A DNA stretch of 63,015 nt, the filler included, from Sluysia triapertura (taxonomy: Eukaryota), in the NCBI GenBank assembly GCA_046118255.1. It is 5 parts of 5 records of this genome, joined end to end, with 100 filler letters (N's around TTAATTAATTAA, not from the genome) between each part and the next. Parts side by side here need not be neighbours in the genome. Positions count along the whole stretch, not along the records: positions 37,272 to 49,318 come from JBJNIA010144721.1; 4 more parts are not named here. One strand, given 5' to 3'. Under the pieces are notes generated by a model. That model did not search any database, was not told where the DNA came from, and saw only the letters and a program-made list of their open reading frames with translations. Each line of letters begins with the position of its first letter. The stretch's first letter is position 1. Positions 1,538 to 56,398 of this stretch are shown here, piece by piece. The position numbers and the translations under genes are program-made.

Positions 1538-3300
1538 TTGTATGTAATATTACTAAGACTTAGAGCCTTTAATGTAATGATAAATTTACAAGCATTTAAT
1601 AATTTTACTACAATCTGTACATCTTATTTTATTTTTGAAATAAAATATTACAAATATTAGACATACAAAACGATGAATTTAACAATTACTTCACACAAGT
1701 AAAACACAATAAATTATCCGAAACTCGGCACAGGCAAAAAACTTTCATCTTGAAATATCATCCAATTTTGACTATTAATATCTATATGCATCATTTTATG
1801 AGAGAAACGGTGGTTTTCTGAATTAAAAATCTCATCGATTTGTTTAAATTTAAAATTAAACTTACATTAATTTTTTCTTATACAAGTTTTTGCATTTTTC
1901 AAAAAGTGCTATAATCATGAAATATTTTTATTCTCATTTTCAAATGAGCCTATAAAATAGTAGAAAAATCTCTAATAAATCGAATAAAGTTTTATTTCGA
2001 ACAATATTTATTTTCATTATTATTTGTAAAATTTTATTTATATTAAGTGACTTGACAACAATAGACATTGATTATAATAAAGTTTCCAGTTATAAAAACA
2101 TTAGTTATTCGAAACCATCCAAAACTTTAACAAAGGATATAAATTCATCTTGTAATTTAACTTCGTTTAACTTAGATTTAACCTCAGTTGAATCAGATAT
2201 AAGTTAATATTTAAAAAAACTTGTTAAGTTTAGCATATATACTCGATTTACACAGACTCTTTAATCTTATGTTTATTCATTTGGTATAGCAAGCCTTCAC
2301 TAACGTAACATTTATCATTCACACCTTATTTAATAAAATTTATTTTTCTTTAAGTTAATTTATTAATTAAGTTTTAGAATTTATATCATTTTGAGCTTAA
2401 AGGTTTTGTCAAAGTTCTAAAGTTGTTTCTTGTTCTTTTTTATAGATTCTTTCTTACAGATTCTTTTTTCTATAAATTATTAAAACATTAAATTCGTCTT
2501 TGTTATCAGTAACAATAATTTTGTTTAACAAGTATTATTAAAGATTTTAAATATTTTACAAGATTACAAGTTATTATTTTCGAAAAATTCTCAATTGCTA
2601 CAAAAAGTACTTTAATATTTCACAAAGTTTTTAAAATCTCTAAAGTGTTTTTATTTTCATTGTTTTTTACTTATTATGTACCTACCCAGTACCACATTTA
2701 TTTTACTCATTATATATCCAACAGTCTGATAATTCTAACCTAAGCGTGAAAGTGTAATATCCTCATTTAGGTTTTTAATTTATTTTGAATCTGGTATAAA
2801 AATATGTGGACAGAAATGAACTTATTTATGTTATTAAATCTGCGGAAGTTTTATCAAATCTTATATTAATCCTTACCCAAATCCTGAACACCACATATAA
2901 TTGATAAATATTAAATTAATATTTTATCATATAAAGTAGTAGCACAAAATGAATAAATATTAAAGTGTTTAAAACTTTTAATTTTTTTTTATATTATATT
3001 TTGAATGTCAATTTAAATATCATTTCACAAACTTAAATAAGATTTTTAGTCATAGTTTTAGCTTTACTGAAATAGTGCACTTAAATAAAATTAAACAAAC
3101 ATTCAAAAATCCAAAAACACTAAGAACTTCTTAATTTTCTTCTTTCTAATCAAATATAATTTAATATTACTAATTTTTATATAACGTCATTGTTAGAAAA
3201 ATGTATTGTTTTCTTGTTTCTGTTATTAATTTGCCTTTACTTTAAAGAATTTATTGAGTATTTATATACTTATTTTTATTAACTGTGATATAGAAAATAT

Positions 3301-3490
3301 TGTTAGTTTGTCATCACAACCCTATAAAATGACTTAAAATTATTTAAAATCATTTAAAAATCAATTAAAATCATATATAATGCTTTAAAACTGTTTATAA
3401 ATCTAGAAAATCACTTAAAAGAAAATTATTTTTCGAAAAAAGAAAATTCGCTTCTAAAAATAGAATGTTCTAGAATATAAAATAGCATCG
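3301..3490 (+). repeat. LTR-like dispersed repeat family A, 5' part (TGTTAG end, HSE, TATA)
   Basis: Starts TGTTAG..ATCACAACCCT, then GCTTCTAAAAATAGAATGTTCTAGAA-TATAAAATAGCATC. Homologous to 32560-32700(+), 37272-37464(-) and 56097-56320(-). Confidence 0.75.
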
Positions 3491-6400
3491 GTTTGTGAGG
3501 ATGTGTAGTTATGAAAATTAATTTAAATTACTACCTATCTTATTGTGAGTCCTCTGTGATATTGGACTTACTCACTGAAGGGCCAGCACACAGATTTTTC
3601 AGCTTTGAAGAAGAAAGATAAGGATTGGAGGTCTTTGTTTGTGTTGTTTTTTAATTCTACTAAATTTAAATATTATTGAAATAACTTAATGGACAACTTA
3701 GTTTAACAGACGTTGAATAATTAATTAACTATTTACAATTTTTACTCGAAATTAAATCAAATACACTTCTCGGAATTTATTTACTGACCGAAATAATAAG
3801 CTGATCAACATAAAATTTATTAAAGTACCTTATAACACGTGAATATACAAAATATCAATTAAATAAACACAAAGAATATAATGCTTATAAATACACTAAA
3901 CTAAAATGAATGATCAACTATCTACCGAAAACTTTGTAGATAAAAGAGTATATTAAATCCTTAGGGCTTAACTAAGCAAATTTATTATTGTAGTAAATAA
4001 TATGTATTTTGTAATATTATTACAATAAATAATTTATGAAGTTATGAATAAGAGTATTGAAATTGTTAAAAAATATTAATTTGTTAATTAATATTTGACT
4101 GTTGAAGTTTAAAAAATATTTTATATAGTAAAAAAATTTACAAAAATATTAAAGATATTAAGTTGTTTATATTGACTTTAAATTTATAACTCGACAGTGA
4201 TAATAACTAACGATTAAACGACTATGAAATCAAATTATTTTTTATAATCTCCTTGTTGAATAACTTCTTTAATCTAAATAGCTTCTTTAAACGTTAACTT
4301 TTGAATAATTTTCCTCATTAGAAATTTCTCCGAATATTGGTTATGAATTCTTCTTCGCCAAATAAAATTTTAAAAATATAGCTATTATCGAATTTATTGT
4401 TGTGAGTTTATTATTTCAAATTCCCTCTTTATATACAATCAACAATTAATCATTTTAAACAAAAATTTTTATTTTATGTTTTTATATTAATTTTTTTTAA
4501 TATTTATTTATATTTTGTTTTAATAATAAAAAAATTTTAATACTTTTTTAAATAATTATTTATTTCAATATAATAATTGTATAAATATATGTTTTAATAA
4601 TAAACATTTTAATAATTTTTTAAATAAATATTTATGTTAATATAATAATTGTAAAAAATGTAAGTATATAATAATATGATATTATTTATTTTACGAAAAA
4701 TACTAAAAATGGAAAACTAAAAATTAAAATTAAAGATTAAAAATACCTTTACAAGTTTAATGAGAATTTCCATTTTGAAAAATCACTTTAGTTTGATTTA
4801 ATTTACAGCGAATTGTGAATTTTTATAGCTGTTTGCAATTCGCAGTTAATTCAAAAATGGGGAAATAAATATTGGACTACAGAAAATCAATTTATTGGTA
4901 AAATATATTTATTTAGAAGTTGAAATTATAAAATACGCGTCTATTTTTTAAGTCCCCGATATATTGATGTATAATTTCAACTTAAAATATTTTAGTAGTA
5001 GAAGAAAACGCTCTCGGGGTTTTAATCTATAAAAATAATTGTTTGTATATTCTCTTATCTTACCACTATTATTATTTAGACCTTTGTGTTTTATAAATAA
5101 AATTAACGTTTTTTGCATTATTTAATTCTTAAAAGTTTAAGCATAAATTATCAAAGTTTTTGAAAAAATTATACTCTTGAGCACTTGTTAAGACCCTAGC
5201 CACATAACATTTATATATAGATAAATTATTAGCTTACTTAATTACAGAAACGCCCTCTTCACGACATAAGACATTTAATGTAACCAGATCCTGCTTGAAA
5301 AATATTTTGCCGTAGGTTAAGAGTTAGAAAAACTACAACAATATAATTGCATTTAAATTTTATTTTTATTTTCTGAGTTATTAAAGAGTCAATTCAAACC
5401 GTTTAAAATACTCAACAAAGTGATTATAATCGATTCAATAATTAACTGAAACACTCTAGATGAATGGGACAAAATAAATCTTATTCAAATTAATCTCCAG
5501 TTTAGATTCACATTGAAATATGACGTTTTTAACATTTAATTTACCTGGGATTAATCTTTCATGATAGACAATATTAAGTAACATTGGCATTGTTCAAAAT
5601 TTAAGATTGCGACAACATCATACATAAATGGTTTTCGTTCAATTTGTTCATTCAGCAGTTGTAGATGAATTGAAAATTAAAAATAATAATGAACATTATC
5701 AACGACTAATATTATTTTGGATAGCAATTATCCAATAAAGATGTTTAAACTTAAGTTGTAAAGTTAATTCACCATTAATTCAAAGTTTTACAAGTTACAG
5801 TGAGTCTCGGAATTTTGAAACTTCTTTTAGATTTTAAATTTAAAATTTCATCGTATTAAATTAGATCAGTAAACATCTTACTAATTAGAAATAATTTAAA
5901 ATAATGCAACTAAACATTCATTTTCTATTTGGAATACCACTTCCATGATGAGCTTGTAAGTGGATATCTTTTATGCATTAGTGCTGCTCCCAGTTCGTAT
6001 GTCTGCATTTCACAAAATCTTCTTACGTAAAATAATGTAAATGATTTACTTTACCTTGCTCCAATTTACCTGGAGCAATTTTAATCTTTGAAAATAATTT
6101 TCTCAAGATTTATTCAATTTAAATTAATCTTTCTTCATAATTCTCCATAAATTACGTATCTACGAACATGGTCAGCCATTGTTGAATATAGTGTAACTGA
6201 ATTTTATTTTCTCTGGACATATTCCATTACCATATTTATTTAGTATATTTCTAATTAAATTTGTTTCGCTTTTATATCATTTTGTTTTCATTAATAACCC
6301 ACTGAATGATTTTAAACCTCCCTCTTATTGGCGTGTGACTGTATTAAGATCATGTATATTCTCTCCGAACTTTTGAAAGTAGTAGTCTCTTACGTCAGCA

Positions 6401-8461: not shown

Positions 8462-8694
8462 TCCTTTGACTACCAATGGGACGATGGGTCCCACAGACAC
8501 TATGTTCTACATCAGTGGGTTAAAAGTAGCTTTAAACAGCCTAACAGATCGTCTCAATGGTTGTGTAGTGTTTATTGAATGACGTGAAATCAGCTGGTCG
8601 GTTACATTTTTTCAATTATGCCATGGCCATAAGTTATTAGCCAATTAAGTTAATATTATAAAATGGGACCAAAAAAGGTTTGGTAGTGAAAGGG
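8462..8694. mobile_element. piggyBac-type MITE
   Basis: TTAA on both sides; TIRs TCCTTTGACTACCA versus reverse-complement CCCTTTCACTACCA (12/14). Confidence 0.8.
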
Positions 8695-8774
8695 TTAACA
8701 AAAGGATATTGATTTATTTATCAGTTCGTCGTAACCAAACCATACAAAGACAACATGAGTCATATTTGATGTAC

Positions 8775-8878: not shown

Positions 8879-11800
8879 TGAGAAAAATATTACAATTATC
8901 CGAAACTGTACACCGCACGAAAATGATAATAATGAAGTATTATTTTATTATTTTTGATTTTTAAATACAATTCTTATTATTGTATATTTTATACAATATG
9001 TTAGGATAAATATATTTTTGAGTTAGAAATAAAATTCATACGCAAAAAAAATATTTCAAAAATGTTTGCAAAATAATTTAATTATATTTTGAATTTATTT
9101 ACAAAATATAATAATTATATTTTTATTATAATAATTTGTTGTAATTATGAAATATCGTTGATAATTATTAAAAATAACAAAATAATAATATAAAATTATA
9201 ATGATAATAATATTGATAATCTCAAATTTCGTCGAGCTCTTATCGCCACTGTCAATTTTAGTTTGTTGTAGCTTCAGGCACAGTTTCATTTTTAATATTC
9301 ACCCGATAGATAAAAAATAATAATATTAATAATAATAATAATAATAAATGTAAGATAAATGATGAGAAAATATAAGTAATAAAGAAATGAAAAATATTGA
9401 AAATTAAAATAGATTAAAAAGAACAGTAATAAATTAAATTAAAATAAAATAGATATAAATAAAAACGTAATTAGTAGGATATTAAATAAAAAATAGCTAT
9501 TTTTATTAAATTTTAATACACATTTTAATATTGAATTTGGTCTTCAAACTCTTCAAACTCCTTAGTTTTAAACAAACTTTCACAGGCTTTATAGGAATAT
9601 TATTTCTGTTGTACGAATCTATAAGATATCAGGGTTAACTTAGAGATACGTTAAATAATAGGATACGTTAAATAAAGACGTTAAAAAGGAACGAACATAT
9701 ACCATTCGAAACCATATAAGATGCAGAAAATGAAGCAAATAAAGAAGATGTTTAAAGAGAATTAGAGATAAAATCAAAAAATATCCGATTCCTCCAACAT
9801 AACCACAAAGAAAAATAATAAGTATTAAGTAGAAAATGATCAATAATCACAATTAGAATTAACGGTAGGATAATTGCTTATTTAATTTATACAAGAGCAG
9901 TAACTTCTTTAATAAACGAATCTTTTCTAACAAGTGAATGACCTAAGAAATTAGCTGATCATGTTTTAATCTTGGAGAAGCAATAAAAATAGTAGAAGCA
10001 ACATTAACATATTGTGAATTAGATAGAAATAAGTTTGAGATCAGATTAAATGTTATTAGAGATGTGTTATTTTAGATTTCGATAAAGCTAGGTTAATCGA
10101 CAGTTATTAAAACAGTATTATAGATTATAATGATGTAATAGCAGGTTAAAACTTTGGTTATAAGTAGAACTCGAGGAAAAACAAATTGTTTATTACATAG
10201 GAACTTAATCAAGGATGATTATATATACGTATAGCGGATTATATTTGTAATATTTGTGAAGACAAAATACCAATAAGAATAATTAATTATACTGACGAAG
10301 ATAAGGGGATATATTCCGGAACAAAATTTAGGAAAAGATCTCACTTATAAAGTTGAATCTCAAAGAAACACAATTAAACTTCAATGGGATATTAATGAAT
10401 ATTATGAAAATATTAAGATTAATAATATGAATGTAACAAATAGATAGATTGTATAGAGTAATAAAATATATCCCAAAGCCATAATACCTTCACTTCCTTG
10501 AGGCTCAGAAACTTGTCAAGATACTGTCACATTAAGATCGAAGCGTATAAGAATTTAAAACATACGTTTACTGAAATAAACTCAAATTATTTCTCCTAAT
10601 TATATTTCGAAAACGTTTTGTCGAAAATATTTGTCGCTTCTTCTATATTTAGTTTGTATACTTGTTTAGCACATTTTGGTTATTGTAATTTTATTAAATG
10701 TTAGTATTTTCAGTTGATTTATTGGTAAAAAGCTAATTTAAGATAAAAAATATAATAAATTTCGACAGAATCATATTAAGATTGTTGTCCGAATAAACTC
10801 AATAAACGTGGTTTGAGATAACTCCTATTGCACAAGAAATAATAATAAAGACCTCGAATTAAGATAAATTAAATTATAAATTAATATATATATATATATG
10901 AGGAAGAAGATAGTTAAATTATACGTTAATGTTGTTAACTAATATTTACAGGCAGCCCCACTATCCGTCGTAAGTCATATACTGTAACCTGACCCTGCTA
11001 AAATTTATTTTATCGTATGTTAAGAATAAGAATAATTAATGAATTATTATTCTAAATCATTTAATTCCTTTTTACTCCATTTAACAAAGGATTCAGTTTC
11101 AGGATTATTTAAATTATAAATCAAAATCAATTAAAATCTTGTTTAAGAAAAGAATAAAATCGTTCTATTTCACTCATTTTAAAACGTGATTAAAATCACC
11201 AATAAAAGTCATTATTAAAGAATTATAATTAAAATTAACTGCCAAGATTATAATGACCTTCACACTTTTATTGAATTTAAGGACATTATTCTAAAATTCT
11301 TAATTGTATAAGTTTTCTTAATTCTAAGAGCCATAACATAATTAAAATAGGTTGAGTCATATTTAGTCAAGTATAAAATTAATGATTGTGTCTAAAAATG
11401 AATAAATTTCGAATGATAAATTTATTATCATTTATGTTTCACATAATTACAATAAAAATGTTTATTTATAAAATTAATAATTGCAGGTTTCTCCATCGAG
11501 CTTCATTATTCGATATAGGTTGGAGAACAGTACAGTTTGGAAAACTTATAAAAATTACTCTGGCTCTAAGGTTAAATAAATAAATCATATTTTTTCTTAT
11601 TTAAAGTTTGTATAGCTAAAATTATTTACACCTTATTTATGTAAAGCCAAATCAAGTTTTGTACAAGTTGCATCAATACTAAAATTTAGAATTATCACGA
11701 AATGTTATCGTTTTTTTTGATAGAAATGAAATATCATTTAAATTTTCTTCAAATCACTCAACAAAAATAGTATTAGAATTGATAATTAATACGGTATTTC

Positions 11801-13425: not shown

Positions 13426-16400
13426 ACATACTACATTTTGTACATACCCAATTTTCTTTTATTTGTACTTAACAATTTTAGTTATGTTTTCTTAAATATG
13501 ATAAGAATTCATAACACATGTCATATCAAACCTATTTAAAAAATCATTTAATATACTCAGAAAGAAGAGGTGCTTATTTAAAAAGATAAATTATAAAAGG
13601 ATTTAAAAGAGTAATATCATATAAGATCGAATAGTCCCTTCACGATTTTTCTGATTAAATTCTAGATATATTAAAAATCCTACGAGCCTATGTAAGTCAT
13701 GTCTTTTCTAAAGACGAACATATTTATTCACATAAATTTAATATATCAATTAGATAAAAATTAATTTAATATCCCAAGACATTTTAATAATAATTAATAT
13801 TATTATATTAATTTCAATAAATGAGTTCATCTATGATCCAAGGCTTACAAACTTAATGACTTGTCCACATGATTTTGGTGAAAGAATCAGATATCATAAA
13901 CTTATCTTTAATTAGTCAGTTATCACTTTGAAAAGGTTAATAAGGCTACATTTCGTGAACTTTTTTAATGCTATTATTTTTGTAAATTTTATTGATTACA
14001 CGTAAGTCTAGGACTCTTTATTAATTAGCTTAGTTATAAGTGATTTTATGTTCAGGTTTAAAATAGTACGTCGAAAAATTGATTTTATGGGTCTCTTTAA
14101 AATGACTCTTGAAAACAATAATATAAATTAGCCTTATTTTATGAATTTATTTAAAATAGTCCTTTAAGAATACGCTGATAATTTATGAAGTTTGGGAATA
14201 TTTAATAATAGGCAGTTTCAAAAATCAAAATTAATAATATAGGACTAATAAGATAATACGCAGACACACACACACATACACATAATTAGCCAAATGATAG
14301 AAATTGTTTATATAAAAATGATTATAGAAGAAATATTATAGAATTGAATAAATGAAATAGTAGAAAAACTACTATATAAAGAAGTTTTTTTGTGAGACTC
14401 AGAATAACAATTTATTTAGTAATATAAAAGGAGAGTGAGTTTATTTAAAAATTATCGAATATGTTTGGTCAGAGCGTTTGATATTTCATTAGGAAATATT
14501 AAGTGGACTAATATTATTATTGGAACATTATCTCTGAGTACATCAACAAGACATACCATCGTTGAAGAACTTGTTCGGTCAGATCTTTTAAATTAATATA
14601 TTATTTCAACATTTTATTTAAGTCTACCAATTAGGCCAAATATCTAATTTCACGAATAATATAACAAATAATAATTGTTAGTACAGCATTGAAAATAAAA
14701 TTAAAATTTGCTAAACTAAAACAAAATTTGTAAAGTTAAAAGGTATAATAAATTAAATAGAATTTAACAAATATTAAATCTAATTACGTATGGTCACTTT
14801 TTGTAACTTATTTGTAAATAATTTACTTTACTGTTATAAATAAACCTTAATCGAACTTTGTGGTTTTTATTTGACTTAAAGAACGATTTGAATAAACTAA
14901 CACACTTCATTTTATACATAAGTAAAACTCTGACTTCCAGATACATTTAAGACATAAACTGGAAATCAAGAAGTTGATAAATTATTATACGAATATTTAT
15001 GTTTAACGAATTTTAAATAATATTAGCGTAAAAATAATACCCTACAATGTGAATATTGACCTACAAAATTTTCAAACACAATTAAGTGTACGACATAAAT
15101 TATATACAAATGATGATACTTTGCTGAATCATTGAATACTAATATTTTATCAAGATTTTATAGGTCTATTTAAAATGATTGTGAAAAAACGATTACAAAG
15201 ATTTTACTTCTGTTTTAGCACCTCTTAAACTAGATACAAACTTATTAAAATAAACTAAAGTAATTTTTATGATAGATCAGTAAAGTGTTAACACAAATTT
15301 GAAAATCAGTAGGTGCAATGGAATTGTTTTAATAACTAATTTAATAATTAATTTTAATAGAATTAATTTAATAACATTTGTAGGTAACAATTATCAGAAA
15401 TAACAAGTCTTCTAGACTTTTAAAATGATTATAATTATTATTGTTTAAATTATTATTATTATTTTAAATTATTACTATTATCTTAATATTATTGTAATTA
15501 TATTATTTATGCTATTATTATGAAATTATTATTATTATATTATTTTTACCGTGAATTATGAAAAATGCTTCATTACCATTGCATTTATTTTGAACCTAAT
15601 TGAGTTAGTACTTACCTTTCTCTGCATAGAATATAAATTTAAAAAATGTGAAATATTGATCAAATTAAGGTTAACGTTAATTATGATTTGAATGTCGTAT
15701 TCAATAAGTTCATAATTCAAAATTTTAAAATATCCGATACTTTCAAGAAAACATAATACTGATGCAATAAAGTAACGAATACGTGAACTCTAAAGTGGCC
15801 GAGAATATGTTGACGATGAAAATTAAATAATGTGGGTTTATAATGAAAATTACCTACCTAAATAGTCCATATAGCTTTCACTTATAACAATACCAGTCTT
15901 TACAACGCGTATTTGTCTATAAAATTTTAAAAAATTTATATCATAACATCAACAGAAATTATTCAATACTTCTATTAATAAAAATCTTGTTTAATTTTAA
16001 TTTAATGAAAAGTTCACTAAATTTGACTTTATACCTAGTCTTCATTCTATGTTACACATTTTATTGGGACTATTTTAACGTGTTTTATTAAATGGTTACA
16101 AATTATCTGAAGTTTAACCATAACATAATTAAATATTGCGTAATTTGATGACTCAGTGATTCTCAAACACCCACTTTCTAACGGTTCCCGTAACCAACCA
16201 CTTATTCGTAAAATCCGAGTTTTGCCGGCTCCCGCGCTCTAGCGATACTATATGCAGAACATGTTAAGCCTCTTCCGCAAATAATATGTTAATTTACATA
16301 TTGCATTTATTTACTTCTTACATCAATTCGACTAGCTTATCGGTTTACAATTTACAATTACTTTCTTAAAAATTGTTTATATTTGGAAGTTCGTTATATT

Positions 16401-32559: not shown

Positions 32560-33330
32560 AATTTCCAAAAAGGAAATGAAATTTCGAAAAAAGAAAACTC
32601 ACTTCTAAAAATAGAATAGAAGCTCTTGAGTGTTCTAGAACATCCATCGATTCATAAATAAACTAGCATCAGTACAATCATAAGCGCCATTTTTTATTTT
32701 CTACAGTGGTTTTCTAAGCGTTTGTCACAAAATTCACTCAATTCAATTTTGTTTACAATTAAATCTTAGTTACGATTTAATCTTGGTTAAAAATGGATAA
32801 TTATTATTAAATATCTTTGGAAGCAATTTTTATTCGAATCAATTCATGATTGTCGTAAGTTATTTTAGTTAAGGAGATACTAATTTATCTAAAATAGCAT
32901 CCTCAAATCAATGTAAATTTATTTTTCAAATGTATATTAAGTTACCCGACATATTGAGGGATAAAATCTACTTTGTTATAAAAATACAATTAAAGACCCT
33001 CGTGGTTTAATTGAAAATTTTAATTTTTCTATTCACTTTTACTTACTTTATTTTATCTCTTGTAACATTACTTTTAAGAACATCTTTGTAAATTTTAATT
33101 TTTGTAATTTTTAATAATAACATTTTTACTACAGATAAGTGAAAAATTTATTAAATTATTAAGAAATTAGATTTAAGACTCGCTAAGAAACAATACTTAG
33201 AAATAAACTTAGAAATTTCATTTTTAAGTTACAGATAAATTGTAAGTTTAGATTTGATAACATATAGTTATAGGAACGCTTAGTGTAACCGGACCCTGCT
33301 CAAAAAAATTTTGCCGCAGGTTAAGTGTTA
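32560..33330 (+). repeat. LTR-like dispersed repeat family A copy
   Basis: CTTCTAAAAATAGAA..TGTTCTAGAACA..AAACTAGCATC..CGCCATTT, and about 620 bp later the shared motif TGTAACCGGACCCTGCT..TTGCCGCAGGTTAA. Confidence 0.7.
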
Positions 33331-37464: not shown

Positions 37465-37500
37465 AATAGAAGTCATTTGATCATTTCAAAAAATTCAACG

Positions 37501-37913: not shown

Positions 37914-38197
37914 ACCATTAACAGGCATGTATTGTAATTTTGACTATTGAATTAATAATAAATTTTGTGAACATTGTTTAATTTAATTTCGTTTCATCGA
38001 AATTTACTTTTTAATTATTTTAGAATTTTTTTAGAATATTTAGAATATTATTAGTAAAAATTTTATTAATTTTGTGATAAAATTAATGAAGTACTCAATA
38101 TGAATTATTTTATACTATACTGAAGTTGAATATAAAAATGAAAGGATTTATTGAATCATTCAAACAATATTGTACATTATGAATTGAAATTTTTCAG

Positions 38198-38663
38198 CAG
38201 ATTCTTAGTACACCAACTCAATTAGTCATAGGAACTATATTAATATTCATTGAATTCATTTTAATTATCATCATTAGAAAACGCTATCCATCTTATACAG
38301 GTGCATATTATTTGGATCGTCAAAGTGCGTATTTGATATGTACTATCCCACACACATTAGCAGTATTTTTACCGATCTTATTTGATGGTGTTTTGGTATT
38401 ATTTTGTACTTGGTATGCAAGTAAAACTCGAAAATTACCGGAAATTCGTTGGTTTTACTATGTATAAAATATGTATAATATGGGTTGGATTAGTACCGAT
38501 ATGTTTTAGTATTGATTTTAAAATTATCTCAATGTCATTTGCCATTAATTTATCTGCTACTGTTGCTTTAGTATTGCTTTTTATACAGAAAATTTACATC
38601 ATTTTATTACGACCTGAAAAAATAAATCAAAAAAATCGATATTTTATTTTGGTAACATGTTAA
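38198..38663 (+). pseudogene. Metabotropic glutamate receptor (class C GPCR) TM4-TM7 fragment with a frameshift
   Basis: Frame 1: ILSTPTQLVIG..YLIC..LVLFCTWYASKTRKLPE. Frame 2: KFVGFTMYKICIIWVGLVPI..LSATVALVLLFIQKIYIILLRPEK. The conserved ICL3 NFNEA is deleted at about 38441-38447, shifting frame. Confidence 0.88.
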
Positions 38664-41705: not shown

Positions 41706-42015
41706 TGTTAGACGGCGCTGATAGCTATGTAGTCAGAGCATCGAACTGTATAGGTGTGAAGCAAAAGGTCCCGGGTTCGATTCCCGGTCAGTCCATTTTA
41801 TGAAGTCTAACATTTGGGAGCCATTCTGATGTTGAGATAAATCATAATTGATTTAGATGTTGTGGTACAAGCCTAAAGTGACATAAAATAATGATAATAT
41901 AATTGACGACAATAGAATAAAATTGTTGGACGGGACTGATAGCTCAGTGCATAGATGAGAAGCGAGAGGTCCTGGGTTCGTTTCCCAGTCATTCTCCAAT
42001 TAATGAAGTCTAACA
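41706..42015 (+). mobile_element. Tandem pair of tRNA-derived repeat units (SINE or tRNA-bearing TRIM)
   Basis: A-box-like TAGCT(C)A and B-box GGTTCGATTCC with T-stem CCGGG/CCCGG; acceptor-like GGACTGA/TCAGTCC; no canonical anticodon arm. Each unit is bracketed by TGTTRGAC..GTCTAACA. Confidence 0.8.
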
Positions 42016-43073
42016 ATTCCAACACAAATCGTTTCAATCGACATTACACAAGAACTCAGTCACTTTTACCAATTCAATTCTTACACTTTCGACCATCCTG
42101 CATCACAAGATTCAAAAACATACAACCCGTACGTTTCGAAAACATCACAATTATAAAATGCGTCACTTAGTTCGCCAATTTATTACTGTTATTTTTATTG
42201 TTAAAATTCCGAAAGTCCATTGTATGATTTAATTAAATTAAGGTTAAAAACACAGGAAAACTTTCCGTATAAAAGAAAACATTTGCAATAGTTTGAATGT
42301 ACTAGAAATAAATGTTAATTAAATTTCATTTTCACATATATTAAGTATTAACTTAGAACAAATCGTAATTGATTAACGATTCTGAAAGTTGTACTTTAAT
42401 CCCGCATAATATCCTCCATAATGACCATGAAGTTGGATAGTTTTCCATAACATGTATTCCGAACATTACATTTCAAAATTCTTTTCTAATTTCCTGTCTG
42501 AAATCTTTTTTCGTATACTTAATTTTTGATTTACTATTGATGTCAATTATCATCAACTTTTCATGATGAATTTTCAATTGGTCAATCAGCGTGATGTTTC
42601 AGGATGATTTTAATGTAAGACATATTCCTAAAATAAACCCTCATTTTTATTGGGATACCTAATAAAAGTCAATGAATGGCTTGCAACGGTGTTCAATGCA
42701 TTCTTTAGAACAGGCGCCCCCATTTCAACATATTTATTTCTGGCGCTCCCAACTTAATAAAAAATCATAATGCCACTATAAAAAAACTTCATAAATAAAA
42801 TAAACAGTTCTAATTCTTCATCAAAAATAAAGAAATTTAAAAAATTTTAATTTTAATTCTTTATATCAAAAATGCAATATTATATCTGTTAAAAAATAGC
42901 AGAATATCAAATAGCATAACATCTCTAGTGCACATGCATAATTGTTTTATGAATATTTGTAAGTATATTTGCTTTGAAATTTTATTCTTGATGGTTGTTC
43001 TACATCCAGAACGCAAATTATGGAATTAGATGAATTTAGAATTTGTGTGTTTAGAAATTTCATAATTCATAAT

Positions 43074-43741: not shown

Positions 43742-44003
43742 CTAAATAAGTTAATAAAGCACTAAGTTCTACGTAGGTACTAAAAATGAAATATTTAACA
43801 TTATTTTACTACAAACCAGCATAGTTCTTCAAGGATTGCATCGACACTGACAGTGTAAGGATAACCCTTTGGAAAAGTTTCTCCTTGCTTGGTAAATCGC
43901 GAATTAATTCACATAAAAACGAATAACGTCAGCCAATTCGTAATCATCGATGCATCGTTCTGCATTTGAATTCTGAGTTAATTATTTGACGCAGCATTCG
44001 ATG

Positions 44004-44091
44004 TGTTGGGCTACAGGGCTAAAGTGTCATTTAGAACAATGATAGTATAATTGACTATAATAGAACAAAATTGTTAGACGGGGCTGATAGC
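44004..44091 (+). mobile_element. 3'-truncated copy of the tRNA-derived repeat
   Basis: TGTTGGGCTACAGGGCTAAAGTGTCAT..AAAATTGTTAGACGGGGCTGATAGC, collinear with 41858-41943. Confidence 0.7.
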
Positions 44092-44582
44092 GCCCTGGAC
44101 AGATTCAACAAACTGCAGACTAACGTTTAAAGAATGAACAACGAATAAGTATCAACATCAAAATGAGTCATACTATGTCGTACATCTTTTGAACATTTAA
44201 CAATGGTTTGTCTTCTTTGTTCTTTGAAATTCTTCAAATTTATTCGATTGAAAATCAAGTTTTATCTTGCAGCTTCTTTTTAAGATCTACATCATTAAAT
44301 ATTGGATGATCAAGACATATTCCATGGAATAGTCTATGTTATACGTACTACTTGCTTCGTAGCACAGCTGACAATTACCGTATACATATTTTCACTTTGA
44401 TTCTTCATGGGAAATGGTCATTGTGCAAATTCTTCAATTTTATTATTTAAATTTAATGAAAAGATATTTTAAATAATTACATTTCTTATAAAAAGACTTA
44501 AAATCAATGATAATAGTGATAATAATGATAAAAATAAGGGGCATTAGGAAAACACGAACTTTTATTATAAAAATTGGAAAAT

Positions 44583-45000
44583 ACGAATAATCCTGCCGAA
44601 TCAATGAATTCTGCCCTGAAAAGATGACAAATTTTTCTGAGAGAAGAGCCAAGCGATTTTCAACTTCTGTGGTCGATAACTGTTTAAAAATCTTGAATAG
44701 AAATATTCTAAAAGCTGCACAACTGACTGTAATAGCTTCTACTAATGCGATTTATTTGGTTTACAACAAATATCGAGTTAACTTGTCCGAAAAAATCTTG
44801 TGAATGCTTCGAATGGATCAATTCTAAGATTCCTTGCATTCATTTATATGCTGTCATTGCTCATAAAAGTTTAAATGTTATTAATTTCGTTCCTGATATT
44901 CCAATAACGTACTCCCTTTGACTACAGCTAATTTGGTAAGATCGAATAGTCAAGCTCCAATCTAAAGAAGAGGAAAAGGCAGACCGAAGATAAGAAGAAA
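44583..45000 (+). mobile_element. Mutator/MULE transposase C-terminal relic
   Basis: TNNPAESMNSALK (catalytic Glu motif), SWIM finger SCECFEWINSKIPCIHLYAV and AT-hook-like RGKGRPK, with frameshifts. Confidence 0.85.
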
Positions 45001-45456
45001 TACTGCTGCTTATGAATGACAATGAAAATTATTAAATAAATGTAGTATATAAAAATCGTGTTTTTTAATTTTTATTAATTCATTTGTCAAAGAAAAGTTA
45101 GTATTGTCTAATTTTTAAAATAAGTTCGTCTTTTCCAATTTTCCCTAAATTTATTTACACACTTAAATTAAATGTTTAGTAGATTTTATATTGATTTTAT
45201 ACACATAACAATTTAATGTACATAATTTTAAAATTGTAAAATCTGTAAACAAAATTGCTTTCGACAATTGGAATTTAAGTCCAATTACGTAAAATATTAT
45301 TCAGATTCCATTTCAAGGAATCATCGTAAAATCATTCAAATATTATTATTATTAATTTTTTGATAAAATCTTATAAAATCCTTGAGTATCGAACTTACCT
45401 CCAGACAGTTAAAGATAAAGGATTTCTTTTAGCATCATCCAACACTCTTATTCTCA

Positions 45457-45506
45457 AATCCAACGGCTGGCCCTAACCCGTAAGTCCAGTACGTTGGTGA
45501 ACTTAC
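45457..45506 (-). ncRNA. Candidate structured RNA motif in a dispersed repeat (other copies 3545-3597 +, 49990-50040 +, 59501-59551 -)
   Basis: Conserved pairings with G-U wobbles and covariation across four copies; see findings. Confidence 0.5.
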
Positions 45507-45707
45507 GTTAAATTCTTGATTTATTCTATTACTATTACTTTAAATAAATTCTCACAGTATTTTCAATTCCAAATTTAATAATTAATAATCTATAGTTAAT
45601 TTTTTATTGTATAACTAATTCTACTAAGTGTTTCTGCTGTAAGTATTATCAGTTTCATTTGTATATTAATTAATTTTCTTTTGCATTACTTGTTTGGCCA
45701 TATAATA

Positions 45708-46918
45708 CAGGGTTTTAACCCACATTTTGAATTTCTAAACCCTCATTTTGAATTTTTTAATCAAAGAATAAAAAGAGAAATTTTAATGTTACAAACACAC
45801 TAAACCATAAAATTTAAAATAATCAATATCATTACCAAATTTAATTAACCATCATTAATGGGCTCTTTAGCCATTGATATTAAAATATGAGACGTCAAGT
45901 GTCGATAAAAACCACAACAATCGCTCGGAGTTATAATATAATTTCCTTGAGCAATGTAATTAAACAGTTCTTCTTCGTTTTTCGGTTTTTTCTGTCTAAC
46001 ATAATTTTTCCATTTCAAAAAGGCAATTTTGATAAGATTCAAAAACGGATAATACGGTAGTAAGTACATAATTTTAAATCCTTTATTTTCGATTAAATTC
46101 TGAATCGCTGGAGACTTATGGAAGCAAACATTACCCACCATGATAACAGAATTATTTCACCATTCTTAAGTTAGATCAGTAACTATGTTTTCTTCAAAAC
46201 TTGACATATTAAACGATTAGTCTGTGTGCACATTTGACTATACCATTTTTAGAAATCGCGCAACACAACGATATATTTCTTGGTTTAAAAAACAACCATA
46301 GAGTGCTCACATTGAAACATTAAAACCAACTTCATCGATAAAAATTATGTTAAATTCATCAATGCATATTTAGCTCTCCCTTCAATATTCGCTGCATCAT
46401 TTCTACGTTCAGGTTCTATGGAAACTCGTTTAAAGCCAAATTCAAATTCCTTTATATATTTTGATATTGTGACAATAGAAACATTCAAGTTATATGACCT
46501 TCAATGTTTTTCCTTTAGAAATTCTAAAGTAATACAACAATCTTCTTCTGTTTCGGTTCTGATAAAATCGATATGAAATTGGCTTAGCATTTTCTGTCGT
46601 TTCTTTTCAAATCGACCTTCTTTTGAAATATATTAATTATGGAGTAAACTGTTGGTAGTTTTACGTCATACGTACGTTATGTCAAAATGCTTCAATGTTT
46701 TCGTATTTCATTACAAATATATGCTAATTTAGAGAAATCAAACTTTCTTTAATATCAATTTTTTCATTTTATAAATATATATATAAATGTTTTCATTTTA
46801 TAAAAAGTATTTCATTACAAATATATGCTGATTTAGAGAAATCAAACTTTCTTTAATATCAATTTTTTCATTTTATAAAATTTGGGTTTAGAAATTCAAA
46901 ATGTGGGTTAAAACCCTG
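45708..46918 (-). mobile_element. Tc1/IS630-like DNA transposon (DD34E spacing) with decayed transposase
   Basis: Perfect 35-bp TIRs CAGGGTTTTAACCCACATTTTGAATTTCTAAACCC (45708-45742 / 46884-46918) with TA on both sides. Minus-strand motifs IIFIDEVGFNV, xNVCFHKS and LLPYYPFLNLIK (cf. PPYSPFLNPIE); second D and the E are mutated, 34 aa apart. Confidence 0.95.
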
Positions 46919-47766
46919 TAATTCATTTATACATTTATATTCATTTGTGCGTTGGTTTATAATTGTTTGTTTTTATATTATTCATTTCTTCATTTCTATT
47001 TTAATAAAATAATAAATTTTTCCAGCACTGCTCTCTGACACGTAATCTTGTCTACTTAGTTATTTATGACGAGTTTCAATCTCTGTTATTTGATTACGTT
47101 TTTCTTTTATTTCTTTTACTTCTACTTCAATGAATTTACTGAGATATTCTTTTACATTTATTAAGAATTTTGTTTTGTTTTACTTCTTATTTTAAGATTA
47201 TTAAGTTATTTTCCAATACATTTTTATTATTATTATTATTATTTATAATCGATTATTAATGTTTCGAAATACAAATAAAGGTACCTAAAAATAAAATTCT
47301 ACTTCCACTTTAATAGAATTATTTCATACTTTTTCATAATATACATGTGTTTAATTATTGTTTAAAATATTTATTTAAAAACAATCATAATTAACTAATC
47401 ACAAAATTTCGTTTTATCTTTAGAGTATAAATTTAATATAAATAATCCAAGCAATTAAATTAGTGGCTAAACACCTAAATGACTAATAATCTATTTATAA
47501 AACCAAAAATTATACATAATTTCCAGTACAGACTTTTCATTAAAATATGTAAAAATAAATACGAAATCAAAAACTAAAATTAACCAATCACTTATTGTAT
47601 ATTAATTTGTGTATATTATATATACTACATAGTACAACGTCCAACATATGTAAGAAAGATCTTAATTAATGATAGGTGACTTTTAATAATATGCATTTAT
47701 AATTTATTATTATAAAATATATATGATTTATTCTAGTATATATTAAGGTCCTTGGTTGATTTAATA

Positions 47767-49233
47767 ATGGCCCCATCAAATTCATGTATATATTATCCTA
47801 ACGATAAAATTAATTGGCACAAAGATCTTTCTGGTGCTTATAGATTCTACATTACGCCAATATTTGCTATATTCGGTATATTAGGAAATGCATTAGTAAT
47901 AGTATTATTTTTACTAGAACAAAAGAAATCTCGGTTCTCAATTTATTGTATATCTATTTCGGCGTGTCATATTATAATTTTGGTAACAAATTCTATAATG
48001 GATGATTTCATGGGAAATGGACTTAAATATTGGCGAAATGGATCTCAGATTAAATTCGATCAATTTTCGTACTTAATGTGCATAATCATGGAATCAGTAC
48101 CAAACTGTATGTATACTGTATCATCTGGTTTATTACTAATGTTTTCTTTTGATAGAATTGTAACTATTTTTAAACCGATGAGGTTTTATTCAGTTCACTA
48201 TCGAAAGGTGGCAATTTATGTTTGTATAAGTGTTGTGATTATTAGCTGTATATTAACCATACCGTTATTAGTCTCATCGGAATTGATAATAAATAATACA
48301 ACTAAATATCGTAAATGTACTGTTAATGATAAACTCAGTCTTGGTCGCAGTTCAATTTTTATTAAAGTATTTGTTACTTTTGTAATACCAACTTTCATAA
48401 TTTTAATCGTTAATGTTATTATTTGCATTCGATTATGGCAAACTTCAGTGCAAAGAAAAAAACTCTTACCGACTGATTTAAGAAATAATAGCATTGAAAT
48501 GAATCGAATATGTGGTCATCTTGCTCTTAATACTGTGTTTCTTATGTTCACTTTACCTTTAGTTATTACAATGTTATTACGACAAATTCAACCATGCAGT
48601 ACTAGATTCAAAGATCTCTCAAAATTTTTTTCATCAACTAAAGATATTGCTTATTCATTAGACTTGATTTTATATATTGTATTTTTGAAAAATTTTCGCT
48701 GGAGATTAATTCGTTATTGTGTAATGCCAATACTTACATGTTTACCGTGTTTCCGACAATCACATTTCGTACTTAATATTCAAATTCGATTAATGAAGTA
48801 CGATAGTAATTTTAGTCGTCGAAAACAGAGTGCCCTTATTAGTGGATTATCACACTGCCACAATCCGACAGTATTAAATGCACTAATGTTTCGAAATTGT
48901 TCCAGTTTGCAAAATTGTGTCGATCAGAAGTTGTGTAATACTGTAGTATCATTTAGGAGTAGTACACATAATATTGATTCCAGTCTTGCTTACCCTACAT
49001 TACATCAAAGTCGATCACCATCTTTGAAATTTAAATTAATTTCACCAGCATCATTATCTGTCACTCATACACCAACAATTAGTTCTAAAAGAATAGGTTT
49101 CCATGAAGATGAAATTGATGCTGGTGAAGACCAAGAAGATAATAATCTTTTATTGGATAATAATAATGTTATTAATCATAAACTTGATAATCACAAAAAG
49201 ATAATAAATGATAAAATTGTCAGTAAACTATGA
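47767..49233 (+). CDS. Intronless class A (rhodopsin-like) orphan peptide-type GPCR, probably of a flatworm-expanded family
   Basis: ORF-track ORF 47752-49233; first ATG at 47767. Seven hydrophobic segments: TM1 GILGN, TM3 Cys plus FSFDRIVTIFKP, ECL2 Cys (RKCTV), TM5 FVIP, TM6 FTLP, TM7 SLDLILY, helix 8 NFR, then a long Ser-rich C-tail. Confidence 0.95.
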   Translation: MAPSNSCIYYPNDKINWHKDLSGAYRFYITPIFAIFGILGNALVIVLFLLEQKKSRFSIYCISISACHIIILVTNSIMDDFMGNGLKYWRNGSQIKFDQFSYLMCIIMESVPNCMYTVSSGLLLMFSFDRIVTIFKPMRFYSVHYRKVAIYVCISVVIISCILTIPLLVSSELIINNTTKYRKCTVNDKLSLGRSSIFIKVFVTFVIPTFIILIVNVIICIRLWQTSVQRKKLLPTDLRNNSIEMNRICGHLALNTVFLMFTLPLVITMLLRQIQPCSTRFKDLSKFFSSTKDIAYSLDLILYIVFLKNFRWRLIRYCVMPILTCLPCFRQSHFVLNIQIRLMKYDSNFSRRKQSALISGLSHCHNPTVLNALMFRNCSSLQNCVDQKLCNTVVSFRSSTHNIDSSLAYPTLHQSRSPSLKFKLISPASLSVTHTPTISSKRIGFHEDEIDAGEDQEDNNLLLDNNNVINHKLDNHKKIINDKIVSKL

Positions 49234-49649: not shown

Positions 49650-52600
49650 CATTAATATTATTCTTATACTTTTACTTATTATTTTTAATATTGCTATAAT
49701 AATAATAATTATTATTGTTAATATTACTTTAATCTTAAAAAATTGTAAATAAATATAAAGAAATATCTTAGACGAAAATGGAACGCTTATGTAAGATAAA
49801 GGAAGATTGACAGAAGGCATATTGGTAAGATAAATTTTAGAAAATAAATAGAATACATGTTCTTAGAATTGAATATTATGTAGAATAAGTTGGCCATTTA
49901 ATCAAAGAAATGAATAATGTATATATTTAATAAATAGAATATATTAAATATATAAAATATTTAAAGTAGAATAAAGCAAGAGTTTTAACGTGGGTCCACC
50001 AATGTACTGGGCTTGCCAGTTAAGGCTAACCGTTGGATTTGCAGATGGAAGATATAGTTTCAGCTAAAGTCTTCTTACTTGATTCAGAATAATTTTTTTA
50101 TTATTCTGGAGGTATGTAAAAGTATTTAACAGTAATAAAAAATATTTTAATAAGAATTTTATGTTGATCCTATGAAAAGGATCTTTATTAGGTATTTTAC
50201 GAAGTTAGAATTAAAAACTAAATAGTGAAATCCTTAATATTTTATATTTGAAACTATTTAATTTAATAACAAGAATAGATTTTACAAATTCCAATACTAA
50301 CAATAATAGTAAGTTTTCGAAGGAATTATTCTATATAATTCCAATGTCAATAAGATTTTATTAAAATATTTTACGAGGATCTATTATGAGATCCAAATAA
50401 TTATTAAATAATTTAAGTAGATTTTACGCTGATATCTCTTGGATATCTAAACCTTAATACAAATAAATAACTTATTATTTTTCAAAAAAATTATAGAATG
50501 ATCTGGCAACGATGATTGCTTGAAAATATAGTTTATGTTTCGACGAGTTAATCGTAGATGGGGAGTTCGAATTATGTTTTAATGATCTGTACCAAATTTC
50601 GATGTCCAAAATTTACGAAGTATCAATTGTGTTTTTTCAAATTGTTATGAAGATTGTTGTGCAAAATTGTAATTTGTTCTTTCTTTATAAATTTTACTGG
50701 CCTGGCTAGGTCATTCTTTTAAAACAAAATTTAATTTAATAAAACAAAATGTATAAATTTAAAATTTAATATTTACAAAAATTCAAAATTTAATATTTAC
50801 AAAATAAACATAATATTAATAATTGTCCAGAATAAAATAATTGTTCGGAATAATTATGAAATTTATAAAATGATCACAAAAATATAACATAAGTAATTAA
50901 TTAAAATTACAAAGTCCAAAATACTAATAAAAATCAATAAGATCAAAGTCTGATTTACAATATAATGGAATTAACTTAGGATATCGTGGAAATTAATGGC
51001 ATTTTACTTACTTAAAAATGATTTGATAATCTTTGAACCTTTATTTACGAAGACACGAATAAAGACCACTCAATATTATACAATTGAACTTGAATATAAA
51101 TTGTTCTAAATGTGTTGCAAGTTTTACCTGGACCTAAGAATAGTTTTATAGTAATAATTTAATTTCATAGTAAGTGAATAATAATCTCATTTTAAAATAT
51201 CTTTTATATTTCAATTGCAAACAATTATTCGGTTTGATTTTTTGATCAATAAGTGTAAAATAAACCAACTTAAATTAAATTAAATTAAAATTAAATAAAT
51301 AAGTAAAAACATACCTCATAGTGCTGATAATTTCGTGTATCTATGAATTAATTAATTTATTTATTCATTAATTTGTTTAATTTATTTATTAATTTAATTA
51401 ATTTATTTTATTTTTTGTTTTTTTTAATTTGTTTATTAATTTAATTAATTAATTTTATTTATTTAATTTTTATTTTTTTTGAATTTATTTTTAAGTTTTG
51501 ACTTATTTTAACTATAAAATAAATTTGCATCTCCATCTCTACCATCAGAGCCGAATTCAGAACTTCTCATTAAATTGATAATAAAGAGATAAATTATAAA
51601 CCTATTCGAAAAATTATCTCTAATTATATTTATTATATTTCGATAACATAATTCAACTTATAATTTTAAAGTTATCTAAAATAAACACAATCTAGCAAAA
51701 GTTACAACAAATAAAATAATTATTAATTGTAATTAAGACATATAATTAATTATCATTACAATTATAACAACAAAATACTTAACTAAATGATATTATTGAT
51801 TTTATAAAATATATATTATTAATAATAATGATATTCTAAGATTACATTTTAACTCGAAAAAAATTAATCTTGTAGTAATAGACAAAATAATATTTATATA
51901 TTCATATATTAATATATTAATTTTATCTTTTATACATTATATTAATTTATTTTATTTAAATTGTTTTTTTTAAATAGTTTTAGACGAAAATGAAAATAAT
52001 TTTAAATAATGAAAAACTAATCAAAATCATTTTTTTAAATTTATTATAATTTCGAAAATCAAAATTATATTATAAAATATTATAAATAAGTAAATATTAG
52101 CTTATCTTTCGTAAGTAATGTTTCTTTTTCTGATTTCTTTTTATGCAATTATAAATTTAACAATATTGTAATGCAAAATAATCACTATAGAAATATTGTT
52201 TTATATTTTCGTTTTAACGCTACAATTGTTTAAATATTCTAAGTGAAATTAAGCAATTACGATGATATAAAATTGCTTTTGAAGAAATTTCTTTTTCTAA
52301 AAGCAAATATTGAAATTTAAAAGGTATTAAATACTTACATCTTGTTTAGAAAACAATAAATATAGCATTTGAATACGTATTTTGTGTCTGATTCAACAAA
52401 GAAATTATTCCATTTATATGATTAGAAAGTTTTACTTTTGCGATGTAACTATCTGTTTCGCATGAATTAATTTTATTTTAGAGTTATTTTAACTTAAGTT
52501 CGAGTGATTAAAATAACTAAGACACTATTAATTACGAAAAATGTATTCACAACATAACACATTATAGTAAACAATAATAATAATCATGATTACATGTATA

Positions 52601-55540: not shown

Positions 55541-56320
55541 GTAAACCTACGGCAAAATAAAATTGAGTAGGGTTCGGCTACGGTAAGCGTCTTACAACTA
55601 ATAGTTGGCACTTCTGTAGCTTATAAGTGGAAATTCGTATTACTTAACTTAATACTGCCTTAAAAATGTCACAATAAAATGAATTAACTTTATTAAATTT
55701 ATTGATTATACAAAAATTAATATTACAAATAAGACAAAAATAAAAATGGAAATAGCTTAAGACAAAAAGGTAGTTTAAGAACAAAATCCTCTTGGGATAT
55801 TTGATCAATTAATAAATAAGATTTTGAGTATAAAATTTCCCACCACTATATCGGAGTCCTTACAAAAATTTATAATAAAATTGAATTTACGTCTATTTTA
55901 AGATTCTGATTTTTTTAAAAATCAAAATCACCTTAATAAAAAAATAGTTTACCCTAGCATGGAATTGTGAAAACGGATTTGAATTCCAAAATTCGTAGAC
56001 GATCAAATGAATTGAATGACTTCAGTAAGATGGCGACGAAAAATTAACTAGCTAAAAATTAAACGACTGAAAACTTAAATGGCGATTTTCATTGTAAGAT
56101 GCTAGTTTATATACTAGTCATCATCCAATGAAAATCGATCGAATGTTCTAAAATATTTTAGAACATTCTAGAAGCTTCTCATCTATTTTTAGAAGCTTAT
56201 TTTTTATTTTAGAAAAAATAATTTCTTTTTTGGAAAATTAATACTTTTTGGTGTTTTTTGACACATAAATAATTTTAAAACATTTTGATATTTTAAAAGG
56301 TCGTGATGGCAGACCTAACA
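55541..56320 (-). repeat. LTR-like dispersed repeat family A copy
   Basis: TGTTAGGT end at 56320, HSE array 56141-56178, CCAAT 56125-56129, TATATAAA 56113-56106, 3' motif 55541-55595. Confidence 0.75.
56141..56178. promoter_or_regulatory. Heat-shock element array (8 phased nGAAn units, 2 single mismatches)
   Basis: GAAtgTTCtaAAAtaTTTtaGAAcaTTCtaGAAgcTTC. Confidence 0.6.
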
Positions 56321-56398
56321 ATTAAGTTATATTTCTAAAATATAATAAAACAGTGGAAAAGATATATAACGTGTTCCATAAGTATGTGTTGCTTAGGC

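Follow-up and report, generated by a model that had tools for sequence, protein, structure and literature searches.

A conserved structured motif of dispersed repeats in Sluysia triapertura that probably acts as RNA

What is the short motif that recurs on both strands of this stretch of the Sluysia triapertura genome, and does it act as RNA? In a preliminary description, four copies were listed and read as a covarying, probably pseudoknotted structure in the 5′ leader of a retroelement. Here, the whole stretch of DNA (the window, 63 kb) and one public sequencing run, called run X1 below, were analysed at the sequence level. It was confirmed that the motif, of about 50 bases, is a real, selected, and structured unit of dispersed repeats: the pairs of its P2 and P3 stems change on both sides, and a covariance model built from one family of copies finds the 45506 copy of another. 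The motif probably acts at the RNA level.

Copies of the motif and their fold

The letters, places, and strands of the four copies already listed (45506, minus; 49990, plus; 59551, minus; 3545, plus) were all confirmed, but the total of four proved to be an undercount. Eight clear copies, one decayed copy, and one doubtful copy were found in the 63 kb, and the spacing between any two copies is at least 1.7 kb. The elements of the motif follow in the order P1 (6 nt), a linker (2-4 nt), P2 (6-7 nt), UA, P3 (4 nt), the P1 partner (6 nt), a loop (7-11 nt), GG, the P3 partner, one pyrimidine, and the P2 partner. The copies, with the parts of the 45506 copy, are as follows.

45456..45506, minus strand: the most regular copy, of family A; all 16 pairs standard; site of the depth peak in run X1
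45506-45501 with 45485-45480, minus strand: P1 of the 45506 copy
45500-45498, minus strand: linker of the same copy
45497-45492 with 45465-45460, minus strand: P2 of the same copy
45491-45490, minus strand: UA of the same copy
45489-45486 with 45470-45467, minus strand: P3 of the same copy
45479-45473, minus strand: loop of the same copy
45472-45471, minus strand: GG of the same copy
45466, minus strand: bulged C of the same copy
45459-45456, minus strand: ATTT of the same copy
49990..50040, plus strand: family A copy; six G-U pairs, four of them in P1; one A-C break in P3
59501..59551, minus strand: family A copy; two-sided change of a P3 pair from G-C to A-U; two A-C breaks
3545..3597, plus strand: family C copy; four P2 pairs rewritten on both sides
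55567..55624, plus strand: new family B copy; 7-bp P2, 4-nt linker, 3-bp hairpin with a 5-nt loop before GG; P1 paired at 6 of 6
5237..5294, minus strand: new family B copy; P3 rewritten relative to family A
10941..10998, minus strand: new family B copy, partly decayed; P1 paired at 4 of 6, P3 at 2 of 4
33223..33299, minus strand: new family B copy with an intact 5′ half; 3′ half broken up and some 17 nt longer, with only an approximate end coordinate; E 0.0009
13821..13876, plus strand: decayed copy of a further family, E; P3 paired at 4 of 4 with different letters, P1 at 5 of 6; UA and GG changed by one letter each; weak match, E 0.31
8559..8612, plus strand: doubtful copy, D; found by the descriptor only, at two broken pairs, within the chance rate

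A pairing descriptor allowing at most one broken pair recovers three of the four copies already listed, and the fourth is recovered at two broken pairs. With G, UA, and GG fixed, the window gave four matches at no more than one broken pair versus two summed over 20 local dinucleotide shuffles, and eight matches at no more than two broken pairs versus 13 summed over 20 shuffles; since the descriptor was derived from these very copies, the comparison overstates significance. In the four copies of families A and C, 60 of the 64 cells pair, and five pairs carry two-sided changes, all in P2 or P3 and none in P1, counts which come from four related sequences and so are not probabilities. When the partners were slid against each other, pairing fell to 22-39%. 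The outer stem of the 3545 copy had been described as rewritten but still paired, and indeed four of its P2 pairs are altered on both sides.

Family B was found by the pairing descriptor and BLAST. It differs from family A in the letters of P2 and P3, in having a 7-bp P2, and in a small hairpin before the GG, whose 5-nt loop is closed by a C-G pair. In three B copies, 50 of the 60 cells pair, and four pairs show two-sided changes. The covariance model built from only these three copies recovered the held-out 33299 copy (E 0.0009) and matched 45506, a family A copy, in exact register (E 0.008), which is an independent check on the descriptor. It also gave weak matches to the 3545 copy (E 1.9) and the 59551 copy (E 2.3), both on the expected strands. 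In the reverse test, which is weaker, the model of families A and C missed family B in the window; the same model matched the decayed 13821 copy, whose P3 is rewritten yet fully paired (E 0.31). The 8559 copy was recovered by neither model. A further descriptor match at 30852 was set aside as chance, and so were weak model matches with E of at least 0.2, among them 40544.

G1 is present in eight of the nine tabulated copies (A in the decayed 13821 copy) and is paired with C or U in seven; the 33299 copy also has G. UA is likewise present in eight of nine. Single copies fold no better than shuffled sequences (best z about -2). The hairpin made of P2, the UA bulge, and P3 is backed by two-sided covariation across rewritten sequence.

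Abundance, strand, and the pseudoknot

How abundant is the motif, and where does its conservation end? Run X1 holds contigs whose kind is not recorded, possibly from the source sample, and 2,637 of them were mapped to 44950-45850 at 80% likeness. The summed depth was 457,966 at motif base 22 and 173,019 at base 3. Outside the core it was down to 6,253 at the position seven bases before G1 and to 8,184 at six bases beyond P2. Since the depth drops at both edges, the conserved unit ends where the fold ends. Contigs specific to the 45506 locus have a depth of 13-30. Summed depth is not a copy number; read as an order of magnitude, it points to ten thousand or more copies of family A. Loose ends of contigs cluster at 45456 (180 contigs, agreement 0.47), with further clusters at 45503, 45511, and 45514. 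Thus, the flanks are heterogeneous, and the motif is not one satellite. A contig joint from 45530 to 45357 hints at a tandem arrangement, but it lies within AT-rich sequence.

Among the X1 variants listed (lowest share about 8%), the core has at least five, three in the loop and two in P1 (A3G at 99% and A22G at 26%), and none in P2, P3, UA, or GG. The flank of equal length at 45296-45347 has at least 15 among those listed. Both A3G and A22G stay paired as G-U on the proposed strand and would be A-C on the opposite strand.

It had been claimed that most substitutions are G-U wobbles working on one strand only. In the four A and C copies, there are 10 G-U cells versus three A-C cells, and the excess persists over eight copies (20 versus 9, p 0.03). 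It weakens if every combination of column and pair type enters the count a single time, as a distinct event (12 G-U versus 8 A-C, p 0.25). The proposed strand folds better in P2 plus P3 in five of the eight copies (one tie; two decayed copies worse) and in P1 in six of the eight (one tie, one worse). P2 and P3 alone contain seven G-U versus five A-C cells, which is little strand bias, while P1 has a fixed G-U pair in both main families, at 99% in run X1. The strand first proposed is favoured, mainly through P1, but is not proven.

Is P1 itself real? When 127 nearby hexamers were compared as partners for the loop hexamer, the 5′ hexamer (GTRRGT in the preliminary description) came out as the unique best one in seven of nine copies; as a background, 0.06% of the window hexamers would pair at six of six positions. 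The A-type 5′ strands pair at six of six positions with A loops and at five of six with loops of family B; for the best B strand it is the other way round. The difference lies in pair 6, which is the lone family-level two-sided change in P1. On the other hand, two-sided change in P1 is absent within the four A and C copies, both P1 strands are conserved in sequence, and a plain hairpin competes with the knot: the loop bases that form P1 can, in family A, pair instead with UAGG, and the resulting CUUA/UAGG helix lengthens the hairpin. This non-knotted helix is the predicted minimum for the 45506 and 59551 copies. The 49990 copy retains both the knot and the extended-hairpin pairings despite its changes, and the 55567 copy retains P1 only. 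The pairings suggest two conformers, of which the knot would be the universal one. In a straight stack, the distance from P1 to the start of P2 would be 29-32 angstrom by a rough calculation with A-form helix values. A 2-4-nt linker cannot span this distance, so the UA bulge would have to bend for the knot to form.

Flanking sequences and the search for a carrier

Which elements carry the motif? The window has a G+C content of 16-33%, with assembly gaps and AAT microsatellites, and holds the following features besides the copies.

47737-49233, plus strand: long single-exon ORF of a rhodopsin-type GPCR, the sole long ORF in the window
45706-46920: Tc1/mariner-like element; decayed DDE_3 gene on the minus strand; 44-bp inverted ends, 95% alike
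27286-27489, 41658-42029, and 43995-44120: tRNA-related repeat, probably a SINE; four copies, two adjacent
38183-38660, plus strand: pieces of a class C GPCR (7tm_3) in two frames
44736-44918, plus strand: SWIM zinc finger remnant
8759-8893: MITE-like 135-bp near-palindrome (85%)
16925-17104: run of 36-bp repeats
45304..45322, minus strand: small hairpin of family A, the second one, some 175-185 nt 3′ of G1
near 50166-50183 (plus strand) and 59364-59380 (minus strand): counterparts of the second hairpin, stems changed but paired
45393..45404, minus strand: donor-like CTGGAG/GTAAGT, a feature of 2 of 10 copies only
50106-50117, plus strand: counterpart donor-like CTGGAG/GTATGT, in the second of these 2 copies
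3300..3489, plus strand: repeat H with heat-shock elements (HSE) and a TATA box, sense to the 3545 copy; as a repeat, H is antisense to three B copies
about 56104-56324 (minus strand), 32560-32700 (plus strand), and 37272-37468 (minus strand): other H copies
3483, 32664, 32895, 45430, and 59468 (plus strand) and 56104 (minus strand): TAGCATC words
6023, 45285, 59265, and 59380: TTACGTAA words

The GPCR at 47737-49233 has three relatives at E 1e-10 or better, two of them 53-59% identical and one fluke sequence at 40%. The host is taken to be a flatworm, and its base composition suggests a planarian. An Rfam tRNA match at 41715-41795 lies within the tRNA-related repeat. The neighbouring DDE_3 gene has no part in the finding; it belongs to its own Tc1-like element with inverted ends at about 45706 and 46920.

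Two of the three A copies share about 25 nt upstream of the motif, and family A shares about 250 nt downstream at 62-64% identity. The B copies share 25-45 nt upstream, and three of the four also share 350-600 nt downstream. Since related copies share 25-45 nt upstream, G1 is not the element end, unlike in an HDV-like cut. The motif lies near one end (about 25-55 nt) of short, apparently non-coding elements, and the constant extension lies 5′. The second family A hairpin was considered as stem II of a hammerhead and was rejected, the flanking core being absent. Of the four TTACGTAA words, three are found downstream of family A copies, at a distance of 170-290 nt.

A splice donor and an HSE-TATA promoter had also been assigned to the motif. 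The two downstream donor-like sites are present, 62 and 76 nt past the end of P2. As a general feature, however, the donor does not hold: it occurs in 2 of the 10 copies, and the depth there is about 2,100 versus 188,000-386,000 in the core bins. The promoter fared similarly. Upstream of the 3545 copy, HSE 8-mers lie at 77-103 nt and a TATA box at about 65 nt, but among the 10 copies this is the only one with an HSE cluster and a TATA box upstream in the sense direction. The 33299 copy has two scattered HSE 8-mers, and the 49990 copy has one.

These promoter sequences belong to repeat H, which carries clustered heat-shock elements, starts with TGTTAG in three of its four copies, and also carries TAGCATC. 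H lies about 530-720 nt downstream of the B copies 55567 and 33299 and points against the motif. It takes the same antisense stance 1.8 kb downstream of the 5294 copy, with the 3545 element between them. Probably, the 3545 element was inserted between H and the 5294 copy, a nested insertion being the simplest reading; the homology at the right junction is weak. When B and H were considered together as a solo LTR, one element had a possible 4-bp duplication and the others had none. Repeat H may be spreading heat-shock promoters through the genome. Six of the eight TAGCATC words in the window are within motif-bearing elements or H, each antisense to an A or B copy.

A conserved AACCTRCGGCAAAA-like stretch precedes the family B copies at 55567, 5294, 10998, and 33299. 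Its CCTRC could pair with the first five bases of the motif and covaries in the 33299 copy. The same stretch, together with a T-tract and GYAG, resembles a branch point followed by a splice acceptor.

Are there coding remnants beside the copies? No RT, GIY-YIG, or other protein remnant was matched in Pfam, a homolog search, HMMER (1.84 billion representatives), PDB, PHROGs, or a motif search, in which the queries were decayed read-throughs with low sensitivity. In a frameshift-aware comparison of 45 pairs, the sense frames were no more alike than the antisense frames, and no open or conserved frame was found around the copies. By eye, the frames downstream of the A and E copies may resemble the N-terminus of Penelope proteins, a likeness that gained no support from the protein searches. 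A Y-[IV]-G block lies 245-310 nt downstream of three B copies and is suggestive only; the idea of a GIY-YIG domain in family B found no confirmation in the Pfam, PDB, and PHROGs searches. Scans of the window gave no HUH or helicase remnant, and no convincing Helitron-type ends were seen by eye.

From sequence alone, a retroelement carrier with the motif in its 5′ leader may be inferred. The carriers are perhaps Penelope-like elements of the hammerhead-free kind, or non-autonomous derivatives of these. A hallmark of Penelope-like elements, in the passages of PMC8557442 that treat it, is a partial tandem or inverted pLTR with a 30-40-bp tail. The present copies are single, and a constant extension of 25-55 nt lies 5′ of the motif. 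The sections of PMC8557442 on Naiad describe Penelope-like elements without canonical hammerheads. The supplement of the same paper contains Chlamys-6, Chlamys-7, and three entries like them, algal Penelope-like elements that share a conserved GC-rich segment at their 3′ ends. Over roughly its first 20 bases, this segment looks like a blend of the starts of families A and B, and by eye it has no P1 partner. This likeness is probably a coincidence with a splice donor.

Candidate functions and comparison with known RNAs

What might such a motif do? It is proposed, at a probability of roughly 40%, that it is a self-cleaving ribozyme of an undescribed fold, which would cut repeat transcripts for retroposition. 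A fuller version of this model is put forward more tentatively: the motif would be a new natural class of small ribozyme with a 5′-invading pseudoknot and a strained UA bulge, present in some ten thousand or more copies in flatworm retroelements, where it would replace the hammerhead and switch between an inactive hairpin and an active knot. Under either version, the hairpin would form first and, in family A, would be lengthened by the CUUA/UAGG helix. The 5′ hexamer would then invade the loop, free the GG, and force a bend at the UA bulge, and the strained core would be the active site. The predicted cut is between U16 and A17 as the first choice and just 5′ of G1 as the second. The size, the knot, the conserved unpaired bases, and the very high repeat copy number speak for a ribozyme. 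As far as PMC6765202 and PMC4209133 cover them, small ribozymes in retroelements have such a profile. Against a ribozyme stand the shared sequence upstream of G1, single copies that fold no better than shuffles, the competing non-knotted helix, a strand bias that fades on distinct events, and protein searches that were blank beside every copy. In addition, the promoter-like repeat points against the motif in three B elements, and the copies are dispersed, not tandem as in retrozymes.

The main rival fits the same data and is doubtful rather than improbable: the motif would be a non-catalytic RNA signal bound by a reverse transcriptase or another retroposition protein, marking the RNAs to be copied or the start or end of copying, and retained by many non-autonomous families. 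Protein recognition would also conserve the loop bases, and the unit lies within about 25-55 nt of the element end and is far more abundant than any flank. Yet it stands at the 5′ end of the element on the strand favoured by G-U pairs, and the tails recognised by LINE reverse transcriptases sit at the 3′ end. No partner protein was found in the searches described above, and the strained knot with invariant UA and GG exceeds most such tails. Precedents, in the excerpts cited, are the R2 protein, which binds a pseudoknot in its own 5′ UTR (PMC6765202), and a Penelope-like reverse transcriptase, which starts at an internal stem-loop and for which hammerhead cleavage is dispensable in vitro (PMC11167929).

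Alternatively, the motif might be a signal in single-stranded DNA, with an imperfect hairpin and a short guide pairing a second site, for an HUH transposase of the rolling-circle or REP type. For a DNA signal, the antisense promoter in family B would be irrelevant, and P2 and P3 alone show little strand bias (7 G-U versus 5 A-C). Also in its favour, a G-Y-R-R start followed by a bulged hairpin may resemble bacterial REP units, and the HSE-bearing repeats may resemble those of nematode Helitrons. The G-U pair fixed in P1 in both main families argues against it, as do the window scans, blank for HUH and helicase remnants, and the want of convincing Helitron-type ends by eye; this reading is improbable. 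Still less credit is given to the masking of splice sites suggested in the preliminary description, by which a GURAGU would be hidden behind a U1-like ACUUAC so that the RNA of an intron-bearing retroelement escapes or delays splicing. Families A, C, and E do open with a donor-like hexamer, two copies have a second donor downstream, and Penelope-like elements keep introns near the ribozyme in the part of PMC4209133 that deals with them. However, family B retains the fold and the pairing while starting with GYAGG after a T-rich tract, which is acceptor-like and not a donor. Masking would also leave P2, P3, UA, and GG superfluous, and the downstream donor is limited to 2 of 10 copies. The least probable reading takes the motif for a translational signal left from a decayed coding element, either for recoding, by frameshift or read-through, or for initiation, as an IRES-like pseudoknot. 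A frameshift pseudoknot has a slippery heptamer 5-9 nt upstream and lies within overlapping ORFs. Upstream of the copies, the slippery heptamer and spacer are absent, the frames are closed around them, and the length of stem 2 exceeds what the usual geometry allows, although the topology and size of an H-type knot fit, and Athena-type Penelope-like elements carry a frameshift pseudoknot according to the portion of 10.1101/2021.04.23.441226 that mentions them.

The ribozyme reading, if right, would add to a short list. About ten natural classes of small self-cleaving RNA are known, and none is known to have been first found in an animal repeat family of such abundance. A cleaving motif would be a new class and a candidate answer to how RNA is processed in hammerhead-free Penelope-like elements, a gap indicated in passages of PMC8557442. 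If it does not cleave, it would still be an undescribed and very abundant structural signal, which could unite repeat families beyond the reach of sequence search and aid in classifying much of the flatworm genome. A 47-nt motif with several natural variants is cheaply and quickly testable.

Does the motif belong to a known RNA family? At the gathering level, Rfam 15 gave a single match in the whole window, a tRNA-like one elsewhere, and the motif matches no Rfam 15 family. Local scans to E 10 around 45506, 55567, and 3545 gave chance-level matches only, far below threshold, with no small self-cleaving ribozyme among them. The family A pattern had no match in the JGI metagenomes or in IMG/VR. 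Looser patterns in viral, metagenomic, and prokaryotic collections gave 1, 0, 6, and 3 loci. In nine of these, at most 3 of 6 positions pair in P2 and at most 2 of 4 in P3; the tenth reaches 4 of 6 and 4 of 4. All ten were treated as chance and not as relatives, since their model scores stem from the letters selected for. No description of the motif was found in the open-access full-text literature or, by short-word searches, among the Naiad consensus sequences.

The preliminary description had judged by eye that the hammerhead, HDV-like, twister, and pistol cores do not fit, and the defining features of each indeed fail. In twister, the closing helix is followed by an internal loop with a U-A step, the opposite strand of about 5 nt is purine-rich, and there are two tertiary pairings, T1 and T2. 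The motif shares with it a U-A step between two helices, a nearby conserved G, and a similar size, but the opposite side is one pyrimidine, a second tertiary pairing is lacking, and it is the 5′ end that forms the knot. In pistol, a hairpin loop pairs with a downstream segment, a linker of AAA is present, and cleavage occurs at a G-U step that lies between P3 and P2; here the loop pairs with the upstream 5′ end, and the AAA linker is absent. In HDV-like ribozymes, P1 starts at the 5′ G and is followed by a short linker and P2, and the P3 stem and L3 loop (about 13 nt) lie between the P2 5′ strand and the P1 3′ strand in a nested double pseudoknot. The motif resembles this in that P1 opens with a G, at which the conservation begins, the linker is short, and the 3′ end closes a P2 of 6-7 bp. 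In contrast, it has only 6 nt at the place of P3 and L3, four of which covary with the 3′ strand, its knot is single, and its upstream sequence is shared within families.

HDV-like ribozymes stand at the 5′ ends of R2, RTE, and L1Tc retrotransposons, as excerpted from PMC6765202. Like structures recognised by reverse transcriptases, such as the R2 5′ pseudoknot and the stem-loop of anole Poseidon (in the relevant part of PMC11167929), the motif is a fold near the element end which non-autonomous families could share; it differs in topology, and no partner reverse transcriptase was found in the searches. Hammerheads occur in Penelope-like pLTRs and in non-LTR retrozymes (PMC4209133, PMC7229834, and 10.64898/2026.07.22.740005, each for the part concerned). 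Non-LTR retrozymes are tandem 150-400-nt units with a type I hammerhead in each (passages of PMC7229834), whereas the motif comes with no hammerhead and its copies are never closer than 1.7 kb. On the motif strand, the stretch from -400 to +500 nt around each of the 10 copies was free of the hammerhead core, which consists of CUGAnGA followed by stem II and GAAA. As these sources describe Penelope and retrozyme hammerheads, the likeness lies in a small motif spread across thousands of heterogeneous animal repeats, including those of the flatworm Schistosoma, near the element end and sometimes beside a splice site. Unlike them, the motif has no three-way junction, its copies are single and dispersed, and the protein searches gave no Penelope ORF beside it. 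In its size and placement, the motif is thus likened to the hammerheads of Penelope-like elements and to the HDV-like ribozymes of LINEs, and is a member of neither.
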